Shown: positions 3,997 through 58,363 of the stretch, one piece after another | Layout: each line of letters starts with the position of its first letter | Position numbering within the stretch: position 1 is the first letter of the stretch | Virus record (IMG/VR): IMGVR_UViG_2654587921_000002 | Coordinates: 15,023-79,022 of that record | Reading direction: 5' to 3' (one strand) | Source of the DNA: a virus | Taxonomy: Duplodnaviria > Caudoviricetes | Length of the DNA: 64,000 nucleotides | Program-made: the position numbers and the translations under genes | The notes under the pieces: generated by a model | The model's input: only the letters and a program-made list of their open reading frames with translations | What the model was told of the DNA's origin: nothing | The model's database searches: none

Positions 3997-5031
3997 TTAA
4001 TGACCATGTTGAATTATTTTTTGTATGTTATCATCCCCCGGGTAGATATCTCCTTTTATTACGTTACTAACTTTAGCTGCATCGGGCAATAAATTAGGAT
4101 TTGTCTGAACCATTTTACCTGAAACGCCCAATTCGATTGGTATATACAGTTGAAAGGTAGTATCAATATCTTTAACATGTGCATAGTACATTCCCTCACC
4201 ACCATACCACAGTTTGCTAACTTTATAATTCTTCCGTATATCTCCTAAAGTACTACCTTTACTCACCTTGTTGGACGCTAGTTTTGGCTGACCACTTTGA
4301 AGTAATTGAATAACAGCCTCTTGCCCTGATGTATTCAGCCCTAGCTTTTGCCAACCGTTCTTTGTCTTTTCTGCGCATTGCAGAGCTGTTAACCCTGCCG
4401 AATCTTTTGCATTTATTTCTATGTCTTTCGCGCTTAAGAGCACCTGAACAGTTTCTATATATCCTGCTGAAGCTGCAAGCATTAATGGGGTACCTCCTTT
4501 TGTGTCTCTTACATTAACATTGGCACCTTTATCTATTAATAATTTTACAATTTGCGCATTATCACCCGCACAAGCTAATTCCAATAAAGTTGCTCCGTCA
4601 TTATCCTTCAAGTTTGGATTGAGCCCAGATTCTATCAATGCTTTTGCACCATTTACATCTTTATTAAATAAACACTCAACAAACTCACTAACAGTAACGT
4701 TTTTTGTACTGTTTACTTCCATAGCCTGCTTGGTACTCTCCTGATAAGAACTTTGCACCGAAACAGGTTCGCTTTTTCCGAAAAAAGCTATCCCTATTCC
4801 GATAATCACAACAATACTCCCAATTATTAAATATACGTTTTTATTTTTTAATAGCTGACTTTTTTCTGCCGTATATTTCAACTCACCTGAAACATCTGCA
4901 ACCGTAGTAGTATTAACTTCATTGTCGTCACTTGCAGTAAATATACCACGGTAAATTTTTTTGCCACAATTTCGACAGTATTGTGCTTCATCTGCAGCCT
5001 GACTCCCGCAATAATTGCAATAGGACACCAA
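3997..5031 (-). CDS. Zinc-ribbon + TM + ankyrin-repeat protein
   Basis: YCNYCG...YCRNCG, one TM helix, ankyrin repeats (GATLLELAC, GGTPLMLAASAG, GLTALQCA). Confidence 0.85.
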   Translation of the reverse strand: MVSYCNYCGSQAADEAQYCRNCGKKIYRGIFTASDDNEVNTTTVADVSGELKYTAEKSQLLKNKNVYLIIGSIVVIIGIGIAFFGKSEPVSVQSSYQESTKQAMEVNSTKNVTVSEFVECLFNKDVNGAKALIESGLNPNLKDNDGATLLELACAGDNAQIVKLLIDKGANVNVRDTKGGTPLMLAASAGYIETVQVLLSAKDIEINAKDSAGLTALQCAEKTKNGWQKLGLNTSGQEAVIQLLQSGQPKLASNKVSKGSTLGDIRKNYKVSKLWYGGEGMYYAHVKDIDTTFQLYIPIELGVSGKMVQTNPNLLPDAAKVSNVIKGDIYPGDDNIQKIIQHGH

Positions 5032-14016: not shown

Positions 14017-15067
14017 ACATAACCTCCTCCGGATCTAAGTACGGTGTTTGAATCTCCGTAAGTTCCCGCCCCAGTCGCCAGTACGCCCGGCCAGGAATTG
14101 CCGGTAAATTTGCGCCCTCGGATGAATCCAGTATGATCCTGCTGTCGACACCGGATATGGTCTGAAAACACAATCGACCGGTGAAGTTGGCTTTGGCATC
14201 TCCGAAACTCTTGCTGGTAAAAATCTTACTGGACGGCCGCTGAGTGGCAGCTACAATGCATATGCCGGCGGCCCGACACAATCTGAGTAATGTTTCTAAA
14301 TCTTCCTGCGCGTCCTTGTCTTTAAGTTCGGCAAGTTCATCAATAATCAGCACTATGTATGGGATTTTTGCTTTCGTTTTGGCATTATACTTCTGGACGT
14401 TAACAAACCGCGACTCTTTTAATAATAGTTGCCGACGGCGCATTTCCTGTACTAATCGGTTAAGCGCCTGGCAGGCTGTTTCTATTTCCGTAACCAGCAG
14501 TATTCTGTTTTCAAGGTAGTTATATTCGCTCATTTTTAAGTCAAGCATGACGACAATAGGCGGCTCTGGCAACGACAATAACGAATTAATAATTACATGC
14601 ACCGCGTTTGACTTCCCCGCCCCCGTAGTCCCACCAATGAGCATATGAGGAAGTTTTGCTAAATCGATTACTTGCAATCCTGCTGTACTATAACCTAATG
14701 GTACTGGCAGTACGCCGGCACGCGGATAGTCTGCCGGGTAATCAAAGTAATTTTCCAATAAGTTATTACTGATTTTTAAGATAGCCATTTTCCCCGACTG
14801 TCGGATTTCTGCATTGACCTTATCCCCGCCGGTTGCGTCCTTGAAATAATCAATTTTGCTGTAAAAATCCTTAAATGATATTCCGGCCGGCAGAGCTATT
14901 GTAAATGTGTAGCCGGTCGCTGTTTTATTTTTGACATGGATTTGTGGTCTGCGCGTGTCAGTCCAAAGGGCTTCCAGCGTTTCGATGACGGCCAGCGGAA
15001 TTTCTTGGCCGAACATCGGTAATAAGATTGACCGTACATCGTTTTTAATCTCGGTGAGTATATCCAC
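13844..15067 (-). CDS. FtsK/SpoIIIE-family ATPase
   Basis: PHMLIGGTTGAGKS, LDLK, IIDELAEL, RAAGI..ATQRP. Confidence 0.92.
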   Translation of the reverse strand: MDILTEIKNDVRSILLPMFGQEIPLAVIETLEALWTDTRRPQIHVKNKTATGYTFTIALPAGISFKDFYSKIDYFKDATGGDKVNAEIRQSGKMAILKISNNLLENYFDYPADYPRAGVLPVPLGYSTAGLQVIDLAKLPHMLIGGTTGAGKSNAVHVIINSLLSLPEPPIVVMLDLKMSEYNYLENRILLVTEIETACQALNRLVQEMRRRQLLLKESRFVNVQKYNAKTKAKIPYIVLIIDELAELKDKDAQEDLETLLRLCRAAGICIVAATQRPSSKIFTSKSFGDAKANFTGRLCFQTISGVDSRIILDSSEGANLPAIPGRAYWRLGRELTEIQTPYLDPEEVMCVDQFQASMLPKGFTTAGDTFGMGRTGYGAATDIAVPVNPGSTAKAGRARRSGRDKP

Positions 15068-18282: not shown

Positions 18283-18346
18283 CCTTACCGCCTCCGTTTG
18301 TTTATCTTTAATTAAATTATAATCGAAGTTAATAATAAAGTCAATA
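18280..18346 (-). promoter_or_regulatory. Twin promoter copy 1 (67 bp: -35, -10, RBS, ATG)
   Basis: TTGACT-17-TATAAT...GGAGG...ATG; exact reverse complement of 19498-19564. Confidence 0.92.
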
Positions 18347-19497: not shown

Positions 19498-19564
19498 TAT
19501 TGACTTTATTATTAACTTCGATTATAATTTAATTAAAGATAAACAAACGGAGGCGGTAAGGATG
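19498..19564 (+). promoter_or_regulatory. Twin promoter copy 2
   Basis: Identical 67 bp in inverted orientation to 18280-18346. Confidence 0.92.
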
Positions 19565-19762
19565 ACAAAGGTAGAACAACAATCCAAAGAATGTCAGGCT
19601 TTCAACCTTGGATTAATAGCATTCGGCAATGGCAAGAAAGCAATTCCCGCGCTGGATAAAGACCTGTTAGGACTGCTTCAGGGCAATAAGGTTGGCGAAG
19701 GGCTTCCAATTATCAAAAGCTGGATAGCCGGATACAACAGCGCAAATATTCTTGCAAACTAA
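19562..19762 (+). CDS. Small hypothetical protein (66 aa)
   Basis: Starts at the ATG inside the twin promoter unit. Confidence 0.75.
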   Translation: MTKVEQQSKECQAFNLGLIAFGNGKKAIPALDKDLLGLLQGNKVGEGLPIIKSWIAGYNSANILAN

Positions 19763-19793: not shown

Positions 19794-19982
19794 ATGGATA
19801 TAGGTCAAAAGTTTTACATGTCTAGTAAGATAACTCCAAATCCCCGACTGTTTCAGTATCTTGGACAAGACAGCGACTTGTTTGACCAGTTTTGCAATCA
19901 TATAGTTCAGGAAGTATCAACTGGCGAAATAAGCCACGTTGAATTAGAGTGGTTTAATCAAAGACAAATTAACCCGGCTTAG
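19794..19982 (+). CDS. Small hypothetical protein (62 aa)
   Basis: GGGAGG RBS, MDIGQKFY... Confidence 0.7.
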   Translation: MDIGQKFYMSSKITPNPRLFQYLGQDSDLFDQFCNHIVQEVSTGEISHVELEWFNQRQINPA

Positions 19983-20011
19983 CCGGGGTCATGCGGAAAG
20001 GAGTGAATAAA

Positions 20012-20134
20012 TTGGAACTTTATTTATTAGACGGTGAATGGGTTGACAGAGAAACATTTATAAGAATTTGCGAATGCACCCCAGAGGAAGCCAGACAAAT
20101 GCAATTAGATTGGGAAGAAGAGTGCCAGGGCTAA
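20012..20134 (+). CDS. Acidic 40-aa peptide MELYLLDGEWVDRETFIRICECTPEEARQMQLDWEEECQG
   Basis: AAAGGAG RBS, TTG start; absent from the ORF track. Confidence 0.65.
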   Translation: MELYLLDGEWVDRETFIRICECTPEEARQMQLDWEEECQG

Positions 20135-20154
20135 CGCCCGGAAAGGAGTACAAT

Positions 20155-20292
20155 ATGGTAATCGTTTTTAGCGACGGCAGCATGGCCAATATGGCAGCAG
20201 ATTATCGGCTTGAATCCGAGGAAAGACCGGCAACGCCGGAAGAATCTAAAATCTACTGGCAATGGCTCGATGCTATCCCCTACCCCGCCTGA
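20155..20292 (+). CDS. Small acidic protein (45 aa)
   Basis: AAAGGAG RBS; stop codon overlaps the hammerhead core. Confidence 0.65.
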   Translation: MVIVFSDGSMANMAADYRLESEERPATPEESKIYWQWLDAIPYPA

Positions 20293-20338
20293 TGATGGCC
20301 TTTGGTACAGGCCAAAACTCCCTCCGGGGAGTCGCGGG
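20284..20338 (+). ncRNA. Type I hammerhead-fold RNA with variant core
   Basis: Stem I CCCGC/GCGGG, CUGAUGA, extra U, stem II GGCCU/AGGCC, AAAA in place of GAAA, stem III CUCCC-UCCG-GGGAG, GUC triplet. Confidence 0.75.
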
Positions 20339-20367
20339 AACCTAATAGAAAGGAGTGAATAAATATT

Positions 20368-20562
20368 ATGCTTAAAGTAACGATTACCCTTAGTAACGAT
20401 GACGCCGAACTACTGCAAAAGGCTGCCGACAATATGACGGCATGGAATGCACGTCGAGGCAGGAATACCATTTGGACAATTGAGGATTACCTGCGTATTG
20501 GGGCCTTGCAGCAAGCCAGGGAAGACCTGGAACGACATGCAGCCGATTTGACCGCCGAATAG
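20368..20562 (+). CDS. Small protein, possibly ribbon-helix-helix-like
   Basis: KVTITLSNDDAELLQKAA...; AAAGGAG RBS; terminator at about 20587-20625. Confidence 0.65.
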   Translation: MLKVTITLSNDDAELLQKAADNMTAWNARRGRNTIWTIEDYLRIGALQQAREDLERHAADLTAE

Positions 20563-20719
20563 GCGGTATTTTTCTGCCCAAAAATAAAAAGCCCACCCCC
20601 GGCCATTGGCTGAGAGTGGGCTTTAAACGAACCTGGAGGGTGCGGCTAAATATAAAAAATAACCCCTTTATGGAATAACAACAGCTACTCCCAAAGTGGT
20701 TATTTTAAAAATATTGACA

Positions 20720-55477: not shown

Positions 55478-56848
55478 TCACCGCCTAATATTTTTTAATT
55501 TTGCCTGAATAAACACCCACGACGGCTCATAATTCCTTTCCTTTGCAATCCGCTTTAATTCATCAATCGTCCGCGCCCGTCCAACCTCCTGGCGTAACTG
55601 CTTTTTCTCCCTGGCGATAAACTCTTCAAGTTCTCCCGCCTCTTCGGCCAGCTGCCGTTCAGAGATTTGGTATTGATATCCGCATTCAGGACATACAGGT
55701 GCTGGCTTATGTGCATAGTAGCAGCAGGGACACTGCCTTATAAATACCTTTGCGGCCTCACCTTTACGCCGGGATTTAACCTCTGATTCTAACGTCCAAA
55801 CCCTATCAGCGTCAGGCAAATCATGGTGAAATACGTTGCCGCAGTGATCGAGAATTGTTGCTATCTTAAATGGATTATCTGGGTCAGGCCTTAACGCCCG
55901 GCCGACCATTTGTATGTATAAGCTCAGTGATTGAGTCGGCCGGAGCATTATAACACCTTCACAATTTGGAATGTCGGCCCCTTCGGTATAAAGCTCCACA
56001 TTCACAAGTACAAGCGTTTCTCCGCGTCTAAACCGTTCCATAGCCGCTTCGCGTTCTTCATCTGGGGTGTTGCCATCTACGGCCTCGGCTGGTACACCAG
56101 CATCGCAAAACTGCTTGGCAACCTGTTTAGTGTGTTCAACGGATACACAGAAAGCAATGGCCCGCTTGCCTGGAAGAAACCTTTCGTAGTGCTGGATTGC
56201 ATCACCGGTAATATGGCTTTTAGCGACAGCCTGGAATAGTTCTCCCTTGGCATAATCACCAGCAAGTGTAGGTACACTGTCCAGATTCATTACTTGAGGC
56301 GGGGCCAGGTATTTGTATCTGCATAAGAATCCCCATTCCATCAATTGCCGGATAGACGGTCCCTGTACCATTACGTCATAACAATCTGACATGGGCTCGC
56401 CGGAAAGTCTTTTCGGGGTAGCGCTAAGGCCGATTATAATGGAGTCATTTTCATAATAATAATCAGCAATTTCACTCCATGTGCGGCTTTTTTGGTGCTG
56501 AGCTTCGTCGACTATCAATATTTTAGGAATTGGAATTTTGGCTAGTCGCCGTCTCAGGGTTCCCACACTGGCTACTTGCATTAGCAGTGATGTGTCTTGC
56601 GCTATCCCTGCTTTTATAATGCCGTGCGGGACAGATATCCGGTCCAGTGTATTACTTGCTTGTTTTACTAATTCCGTCCGGTGGGCCATCATACAGGCTC
56701 TGTAACCGTTGCTTATAGTGCCTTTAAGGATAAAAGATGCAATTGCTGTTTTGCCGCCCCCACAGGCAAGTTGTATTAATATACGGCGCTGGCCATCTTT
56801 GATTTGTTCGCGGACTTTATTGATTATTTGTTGCTGGTAATCTCGCAA
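55478..56848 (-). CDS. SF2 DEAD/DEAH-box helicase
   Basis: ACGGGKT, VDEAQH, SATP, EGAD.P, QMVGRALR. Confidence 0.93.
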   Translation of the reverse strand: MRDYQQQIINKVREQIKDGQRRILIQLACGGGKTAIASFILKGTISNGYRACMMAHRTELVKQASNTLDRISVPHGIIKAGIAQDTSLLMQVASVGTLRRRLAKIPIPKILIVDEAQHQKSRTWSEIADYYYENDSIIIGLSATPKRLSGEPMSDCYDVMVQGPSIRQLMEWGFLCRYKYLAPPQVMNLDSVPTLAGDYAKGELFQAVAKSHITGDAIQHYERFLPGKRAIAFCVSVEHTKQVAKQFCDAGVPAEAVDGNTPDEEREAAMERFRRGETLVLVNVELYTEGADIPNCEGVIMLRPTQSLSLYIQMVGRALRPDPDNPFKIATILDHCGNVFHHDLPDADRVWTLESEVKSRRKGEAAKVFIRQCPCCYYAHKPAPVCPECGYQYQISERQLAEEAGELEEFIAREKKQLRQEVGRARTIDELKRIAKERNYEPSWVFIQAKLKNIRR

Positions 56849-57553: not shown

Positions 57554-58363
57554 TCATGCAGGCATTAACTCAGTATAATGAATAATTTTATCGACTTTCT
57601 TAGTTGCCCGGCAGTACTCGCACCGCTCGCACCTGACAGGCGGTTCCTTGCCTGCCTTTACCGCAATAATCCGCGGCATGTTTTCCCGGATTTTATTTAA
57701 CTCCTCCTGCACTCGGTCATGATCCGTCAGGTCGATGATTGCATGGTCAGGAACCTTTTCCTTTGACACGGCGATGCAGTAAAAGTCTCGCCAATTGTCC
57801 CGGCCTCGGGCAATTCTCTCAACTTCGGAGTAAACAGCAACCTGAATCATATACTGCCATTCCTCAATAAAAGATACATATTTTCTGATCTCATCGGACC
57901 AGACATGCTCGGTGATTGACTTAGTTGTTTTTAGGTCCAGCAGGTAATTTAATCCTGGATTATCAACGTCAATTTTTACTTTCCATGGGATGCCGAACAT
58001 TTCGGCGGTTAAGATAATTTCTTTGCGCCCCTGCAGGTAAAACATAACTTTGGGATCATTAGCCAGGCAGGCAATCATTTCATCAGCATGCCGGTACTCG
58101 GACTTTAATTCTCCCTTGGTAGGGCCCTTTGACGAAATAATCTCCGGATGGTCACAGATGAATTTTTCTAATGCATCCGGACCCTCTGCCCAGCAGTGCA
58201 CATATTGGCCTACAAGCAGGGCTGTTTTATCTTCGGGCTCATATTCGCCTTTCAGATTCGCTAGCGTGGCGGCTTCGCAGGAGATCCAATTTTTATATTG
58301 GCTGACAGACATATAATGCAAGTTCGCGGCTTGGCTATGGTAATTTCCAGCGGTTAACTGCAT
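57554..58363 (-). CDS. PD-(D/E)XK exonuclease (DUF3799 type)
   Basis: MSVSQYK, KVKID, DLKTT, Y.IQ.AVY, CERCEYC. Confidence 0.9.
   Translation of the reverse strand: MQLTAGNYHSQAANLHYMSVSQYKNWISCEAATLANLKGEYEPEDKTALLVGQYVHCWAEGPDALEKFICDHPEIISSKGPTKGELKSEYRHADEMIACLANDPKVMFYLQGRKEIILTAEMFGIPWKVKIDVDNPGLNYLLDLKTTKSITEHVWSDEIRKYVSFIEEWQYMIQVAVYSEVERIARGRDNWRDFYCIAVSKEKVPDHAIIDLTDHDRVQEELNKIRENMPRIIAVKAGKEPPVRCERCEYCRATKKVDKIIHYTELMPA

Follow-up and report, generated by a model that had tools for sequence, protein, structure and literature searches.

A natural G12A hammerhead ribozyme fold, most likely unable to cut, at a small-gene junction of a Sporomusa-type prophage

The DNA considered here is a 64,000-nt stretch of a tailed-virus record (positions 15,023 to 79,022 of IMG/VR record IMGVR_UViG_2654587921_000002), referred to below as the window. 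On its plus strand, five open reading frames (ORFs) of 40–66 amino acids make up a small-gene operon of ~1.05 kb, which extends from a promoter-like site at 19500–19528 (TTGACT and TATAAT with a 17-nt spacer, 11 of 12 matches) to a terminator-like hairpin with a T run that closes it at 20551–20567. ORF1 (19562–19762, 66 aa) has no known family, and ORF2 (19794–19982, 62 aa) ends in ...INPA and a stop codon within a conserved junction sequence, cassette a, whose hairpin CCCGGC-UUA-GCCGGG (19973–19987) encloses that stop; cassette a is also present in other Sporomusa prophages and on a 59-kb contig of the same genome (contig 2). ORF3 (20012–20134, 40 aa) begins with TTG, has a contig 2 copy that is 92% identical at the DNA level, and runs into cassette b (AGAGUGCCAGGGCUAACGCCC, 20118–20141), which supplies ...ECQG and the stop; the weak hairpin of cassette b (20125–20141) is not kept in its other copies. 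ORF4 (20155–20292, 45 aa) is an orphan for which a homologue search returned nothing. The last gene, ORF5 (64 aa, 20368–20562), starts at an ATG at 20368 behind the ribosome-binding site (RBS) AAGGAG at 20350–20355; it is conserved in Sporomusa prophages, and its homologues carry Sporomusa names. None of the five ORFs matched Pfam or PHROGs. The near-consensus promoter has an identical, inverted counterpart on the minus strand at 18316–18344, such that the two drive divergent small-gene arrays, and in a DNA search the first 65 nt of the query matched this inverted copy at 100%.

Between ORF4 and ORF5, positions 20284–20338 (plus strand) adopt a type I hammerhead fold in which stems II and III are closed and stem I is open. 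The 5′ strand of stem I (CCCGC, 20284–20288) pairs with GCGGG at 20334–20338 in the letters, in the predicted fold and in the alignment to the covariance model described below. The core strand CUGAUGA (C3–A9, 20289–20295) corresponds to the canonical C3 U4 G5 A6 N7 G8 A9 and is followed by one extra unpaired U at 20296. Stem II (20297–20313) is formed by GGCCU (20297–20301) and AGGCC (20309–20313) with the loop UUGGUAC, and stem III (20317–20332) by the A15.1–U16.1 pair (A20317–U20332) and CUCCC/GGGAG with the loop UCCG. By alignment to the family, C17, a non-G H17, lies at 20333 and nominal cleavage falls between 20333 and 20334, 34 nt ahead of the ORF5 start codon. The 3′ strand of stem I continues into a conserved AACC tail (together 20334–20342; sequence, covariation and alignment agree), of which ACC (20340–20342) can pair with GGU of loop II (20304–20306) in a pseudoknot; this predicted, family-covarying pairing would provide the tertiary contact between stems I and II that a hammerhead is expected to have. 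The three-way junction is both the minimum-energy and the centroid fold of the isolated element (z −2.5), and again both inside 171 nt of context. The one element of the catalytic core that fails is G12 A13 A14, in which G12 is the general base: direct reading of the letters gives AAA at positions 12–14 where the family consensus is GAA, with A13 and A14 in place at 20315–20316 and position 12 an A (20314) in the sequence, in the family alignment and in the read assembly. This G12A is the sole departure of the window copy from the family consensus. An earlier note on this DNA, made from the letters, had described the stems, CUGAUGA, the GUC triplet, the U after A9 and AAAA in place of GAAA, all of which hold base for base; it had also placed the element over the stop of one ORF and ahead of the RBS of the next, and the UGA at 20290–20292 that ends ORF4 is indeed U4–G5–A6 of the hammerhead core.

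Is this a true member of the hammerhead family or a chance fold? The covariance model R2, built solely from 150 hammerheads of other genomes with the window sequence left out, scores the window copy at 69.3 bits (E 2.5e-15) and finds no other significant match in the 64 kb. Among 60 related genomes searched, DNA matches of 84–89% confined to the ~60-nt motif were found at three places in two other genomes; these relatives share the architecture and the extra U but carry CUGACGA and the canonical GAAA, and their stems II and III differ from those of the window copy by compensatory changes. The exact stem III sequence of the window had no match in metagenomes. A degenerate pattern with position 12 left free matched at least 120 genome loci (among the matches listed, in Oscillospiraceae, other Clostridia, Paenibacillus, Cohnella and cyanobacteria) and at least 115 IMG/VR contigs, giving a family of at least 235 loci in these bacteria and in IMG/VR phages. 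When 100 of the pattern loci were searched with a covariance model, 180 copies came out, up to ~10 per 8 kb, and family copies often stand in arrays between small genes. For the best 150 of these 180 copies, 98.2% of stem cells are paired, both partners vary in 14 of the 17 base pairs and the core purines are all invariant, compared with about 40% paired cells in slid alignment controls. The pseudoknot covaries as well (GGC/GCC in 114 copies, GGU/ACC in 36, the latter being the window combination). The window element is a genuine hammerhead homologue, far beyond chance, and the homology and context bear out the suggestion of the earlier note that it belongs with the hammerheads found between small prophage genes. 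The extra U, to which that note had drawn attention, is present but is not peculiar to the window copy, since 119 of the best 150 copies (~80%) have a U inserted there.

An Infernal-type check, which the note had proposed, succeeded with the custom model but not with the Rfam hammerhead models. At gathering thresholds, Rfam detects no hammerhead or other ribozyme in the window; at E 10, a 221-nt slice around the element gives no hammerhead match; and RF00163 returns just a 15.6-bit chance match elsewhere when run over the whole genome. The rationale for discounting this failure is that canonical relatives are missed too: among dozens of canonical subfamily copies in 12 loci, none reaches the gathering threshold of any Rfam 15 hammerhead model. 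The missing match therefore reflects the Rfam models rather than the window copy. Loci whose canonical copies are missed include L027, L029, L060, L085, L089 and L099, and in L060 a RAGATH-5 element was detected at 4861–4913.

The setting of the window copy is also that of its family. Of 195 family copies, 158 have a Shine–Dalgarno sequence and start codon no more than 120 nt from the cut site, mostly at 30–50 nt, and in 83 the frame of the core UGA is open for at least 40 codons upstream, compared with 52 and 53 for the other two frames. On these counts, the UGA in the hammerhead core often also ends the upstream gene, as it does ORF4, and a ribosome terminating there would for this reason be positioned over stem I and the core. 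A different arrangement was observed in Sporomusaceae and several other Firmicutes, where most subfamily hammerheads precede no RBS and are followed on the 3′ side by a conserved module consisting of AACCCGC..CGAGG, a variable hairpin and CCCUUKAYAUAGAUUGUUCUUU (L259:1430–1572 on the minus strand, L273–L277, L281, L002, L003, L017, L026, L083 and L054).

Comparison with characterized systems places the element among the type I hammerheads (RF00163, clan CL00010), with which it shares CUGANGA, A13 and A14, the A15.1–U16.1 pair and the GUC triplet. Unlike known type I hammerheads, the window copy has A12 and an extra U between A9 and G10.1, and unlike RF00163 members, it and its canonical relatives score below every Rfam hammerhead threshold. 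Perreault et al. 2011 (PMC3088659) report prophage hammerhead arrays and describe pseudoknots for all hammerhead types, and the present subfamily resembles the bacterial and prophage examples given there in its three stems, open stem I, tertiary pseudoknot and occurrence in arrays between small prophage genes. However, the arrays of that study have several ribozymes flanking single genes on a transcript, whereas the window has one hammerhead-like element. For the extra U, the closest parallel is the CChMVd (+) hammerhead, where a base is likewise inserted after A9 (De la Pena and Flores 2001, via PMC3705267); this is a viroid type III ribozyme in which the natural extra base is A, whereas U is the norm in the window subfamily. 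According to PMC3705267, a U at this position of CChMVd raised trans-cleavage 3–4 fold, so the extra U of the window copy is probably benign. Hammerheads from a phage context in which a single core base deviates and activity is lowered or absent include the Bcep176 A6C variant (PMC3088659, PMC7151607) and the RNAs of Figure S7 of PMC3088659, with Bcep176 deviating at position 6 and not at 12. The passages of PMC3088659 and PMC7151607 available on core-variant hammerheads make no mention of a natural G12A, and a literature search for hammerhead together with Sporomusa found no paper.

Two questions follow from the A at position 12: whether it is real and what it does. The earlier note had asked whether homologues keep A or G, and the answer is that all 150 model-aligned relatives (the best 150 of 180 copies) have G, as do 261 of the 264 pattern matches among those listed; the remaining three have A12, and just one of them folds as a hammerhead. 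An error of sequencing or assembly at 20314, which would leave an ordinary active hammerhead, has in its favor the prior that single-base errors occur. The note had raised this as well, and an independent Logan assembly of run ERR1231562 is identical to the window over 341 nt, AAAA included, although the same run may also have fed the genome assembly; we regard an error as extremely unlikely. As to what the A does, the same general-base substitution has been made in the full-length sTRSV hammerhead, an engineered type III ribozyme where the window copy is natural, type I and located in an mRNA, and it brought the wild-type rate of ~50 per min down to ~1e-4 per min (Chi et al. 2008, PMC2553840). 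These kinetics agree with the expectation of the earlier note that G12A should strongly impair cleavage, and because of them we conclude that the window copy most likely folds without cutting.

Further copies in the same genome and in related genomes show what commonly happens to such elements. On contig 2, which has no match among PLSDB plasmids, a canonical copy (GAAA, GUA) at 57819–57888, with its predicted cut after 57876, stands before an RBS in a paralogous small-gene array, and the same array contains a twister-P5 ribozyme above the Rfam gathering score (42.3 versus 37.6 bits; L258:206–265, ~56524–56583). L003 has a weaker twister-like match (24.2 bits), about 200 nt upstream of its hammerhead. 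On contig 1, a copy at 2062078–2062149 (minus strand) has mismatches in stems I and II. Damaged copies are frequent in the genus, family and order, with a CUACUGA core, U3, an inserted core base or a lost 5′ strand; in S. paucivorans, a remnant at a neighbouring junction joins the 5′ half of a hammerhead to another hairpin cassette. No G12 sister was found at an orthologous ORF4/ORF5 junction, ORF4 being an orphan. At four other loci with ORF5 orthologues, the junction has no hammerhead and has instead one of two other conserved cassettes, the same a and b that form the other junctions of the window operon. The gene thus needs no hammerhead.

These cassettes bear on a larger claim of the earlier note, namely that GC hairpins at the other gene junctions make the operon an RNA-segmented polycistron. 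The hairpins exist, at 19973–19987 and 20125–20141, but the claim is not supported: both match no ribozyme family or model, nothing suggests that they are cleaved, and they are part of the very cassettes found in place of the hammerhead at this junction in other Sporomusa prophages. More generally, the junctions between small genes in these Sporomusa prophage arrays were observed to use a small set of conserved cassettes that can stand in for one another. Each provides genes that are otherwise unrelated with their final codons and stop (...NPA stop, ...ECQG stop) and leads into GAAAGGAG; examples lie at 19973–19990 and 20118–20141 of the window, at L258:905–922, 1055–1075, 1305–1325 and 499–520, and in L265–L268. 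The hammerhead is one such junction cassette, and the cassettes look like module boundaries for gene shuffling. One could therefore propose that the element serves mainly at the DNA level, as a recombination linker that gives small-gene swaps a conserved boundary and whose RNA activity is irrelevant here. The three interchangeable cassettes before ORF5 orthologues, the shared last codons and stops of unrelated genes and the S. paucivorans fusion fit this proposal, as does the homology between two other A12 loci discussed below, L242 and L286 (86% over 876 nt), which begins exactly at the hammerhead 5′ end and is preceded by unrelated sequence, such that the ribozyme there appears to mark a mosaic module boundary. 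However, compensatory changes and invariant catalytic bases across the family show selection at the RNA level, and a linker role would be compatible with loss of cleavage rather than opposed to it. As the principal account of the element, the linker proposal seems to us very unlikely.

Does A12 occur in other natural copies as well? Scans of the whole IMG/VR collection covered seven purine transitions (G12A, G5A, A6G, G8A, A9G, A13G and A14G). Well-folded A12 copies numbered two (L242 and L283), and folded copies with any of the other six numbered zero each; A9G pattern matches there were due to chance and lacked the stems. The A12 pattern matches L086, L112, L282, L284, L285, L288 and L290 were likewise rejected as chance matches. 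Metagenomes added L286, L289 and the partly decayed L287, in which A12 is accompanied by a stem mismatch and a weakened tail. In all, at least five other independent A12 copies have a good or nearly good fold (L242, the L286/L294/L295 lineage, L283, L289 and L287). The A12 copies of L242 and L286 both precede homologous 96-aa genes, and 15 further loci with this gene were fetched for orthologue comparison; two 5′-truncated hammerhead relics were also seen among the loci with the gene. The A12 copies before the 96-aa gene occupy two different hammerhead backbones, each of which has a G12 sister: L294 (A12) and L296 (G12) are 96.5% identical over 1248 nt, and L242 (A12) and L298 (G12) are 83% identical over 1323 nt. 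For this reason, G12A arose at least twice before this gene. The possibility that A12 had been kept through compensatory divergence between L242 and L286 was rejected on the same grounds, both alleles look young from these comparisons, and no old A12 lineage with deep compensatory divergence was seen among the orthologous loci compared (two lineages). A descriptor scan of the fetched loci recovered 210 well-folded copies, namely 207 canonical ones and one each with U4C, C3U and G12A, a total that is too small to judge whether A12 is over-represented. A12 recurs and may be somewhat favored among single mutants, with the qualification that the numbers are small and that the collection-wide scans covered purine transitions only. 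A core change of another kind, GCC for GUC (U16.1 to C), which breaks the A15.1–U16.1 pair, is shared by two related contigs among these loci (L306:163–237 and L307:166–238).

This recurrence is among the arguments for the alternative that selection maintains the A12 copy. The copy might be a non-cutting structural element, namely an intercistronic insulator or stabilizer that keeps the ORF5 RBS free and ORF4 and ORF5 linked, or a ribozyme whose cutting is conditional and requires particular metal ions or a high pH. Nothing in the fold or the pseudoknot is broken, the junction forms in the longer context, and active-site geometry is retained in the G12A hammerhead (PMC2553840). In addition, PMC7151607, summarizing another study, states that G12A can move metal specificity from Mg2+ to Zn2+, and the same source describes the natural phage A6C variant as preferring Mn2+. 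The independent natural copies with good or nearly good folds, the two origins before one gene and the standing of A12 as the sole purine transition among folded IMG/VR copies (2 versus 0 each for six others) point the same way. Against this, no A12 lineage persists through divergence, the L242 and L286/L294/L295 copies having near-identical G12 sisters; A12 occurs seldom, in just 1 of the 210 well-folded copies of the unbiased descriptor scan, as often as U4C and C3U; L287 combines A12 with the mismatch and weakened tail that decay predicts; and ORF5 orthologues manage without a hammerhead. The counts are also small, and mutational bias is possible because G12 follows C11.1. We consider selection for A12 unlikely while granting it some real weight.

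The reading we favor, to which we assign a probability of roughly two in three, is the first of those raised by the earlier note: an mRNA-processing ribozyme that was disabled recently and has kept its fold. The invariance of G12, the decaying copies in the clade, the near-identical G12 sisters of other A12 alleles and the hammerhead-free orthologous junctions fit it best. We infer that the change at position 12 is recent and was not selected. The ancestor of the window copy would have been a member of a widespread phage-borne type I hammerhead subfamily with an open stem I, the usual extra U and the loop II/3′-tail pseudoknot. In canonical members, the RNA would fold during transcription and cut itself after H17, such that the upstream message ends in a stable structure and the downstream gene is left with a 5′-OH leader of ~30–50 nt before its RBS. 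A Sporomusa-type prophage copy of this kind presumably came to stand between ORF4 and ORF5, supplying the ORF4 stop codon, and a single G-to-A change at position 12 would then have removed the general base. The RNA should still fold and would cut ~1e5- to 1e6-fold more slowly, which is effectively not at all within the lifetime of an mRNA, so that ORF4 and ORF5 would remain on one transcript. Several points weigh against this reading: selection for structure would leave the same intact stems, pseudoknot and AACC tail, no G12 sister junction was found for the window copy, A12 is the sole one of seven purine transitions seen in folded IMG/VR copies, and it arose twice before one gene.

The two independent G12A events before the same 96-aa gene hint that knock-outs which preserve the fold may be tolerated or favored. 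Taken further, G12A would be a recurrent fold-preserving allele, off or conditional, by which phages repeatedly silence cutting at particular junctions while keeping the RNA architecture; we offer this as a speculation that is more probably wrong than right by a wide measure. If it were true, the A12 allele would serve to hold two cistrons together or to place cutting under the control of a soft metal ion or of pH, and the window copy and the two A12 alleles before the 96-aa gene in metagenomic phages would be examples.

The element is best seen as a broken member of an ordinary family, in its usual setting, without the base that does the chemistry. This large subfamily escapes Rfam 15 in every copy tested and will therefore be missed by standard annotation. 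A natural G12A allele with all else intact forms a clean pair with its one-base revertant, and with the canonical contig 2 copy, and such a pair lets one ask what cleavage does for the expression of small phage genes. Moreover, the recurrence of A12 alleles, twice before the same gene, raises the question of whether knock-outs that preserve the fold are tolerated or are used by these phages.
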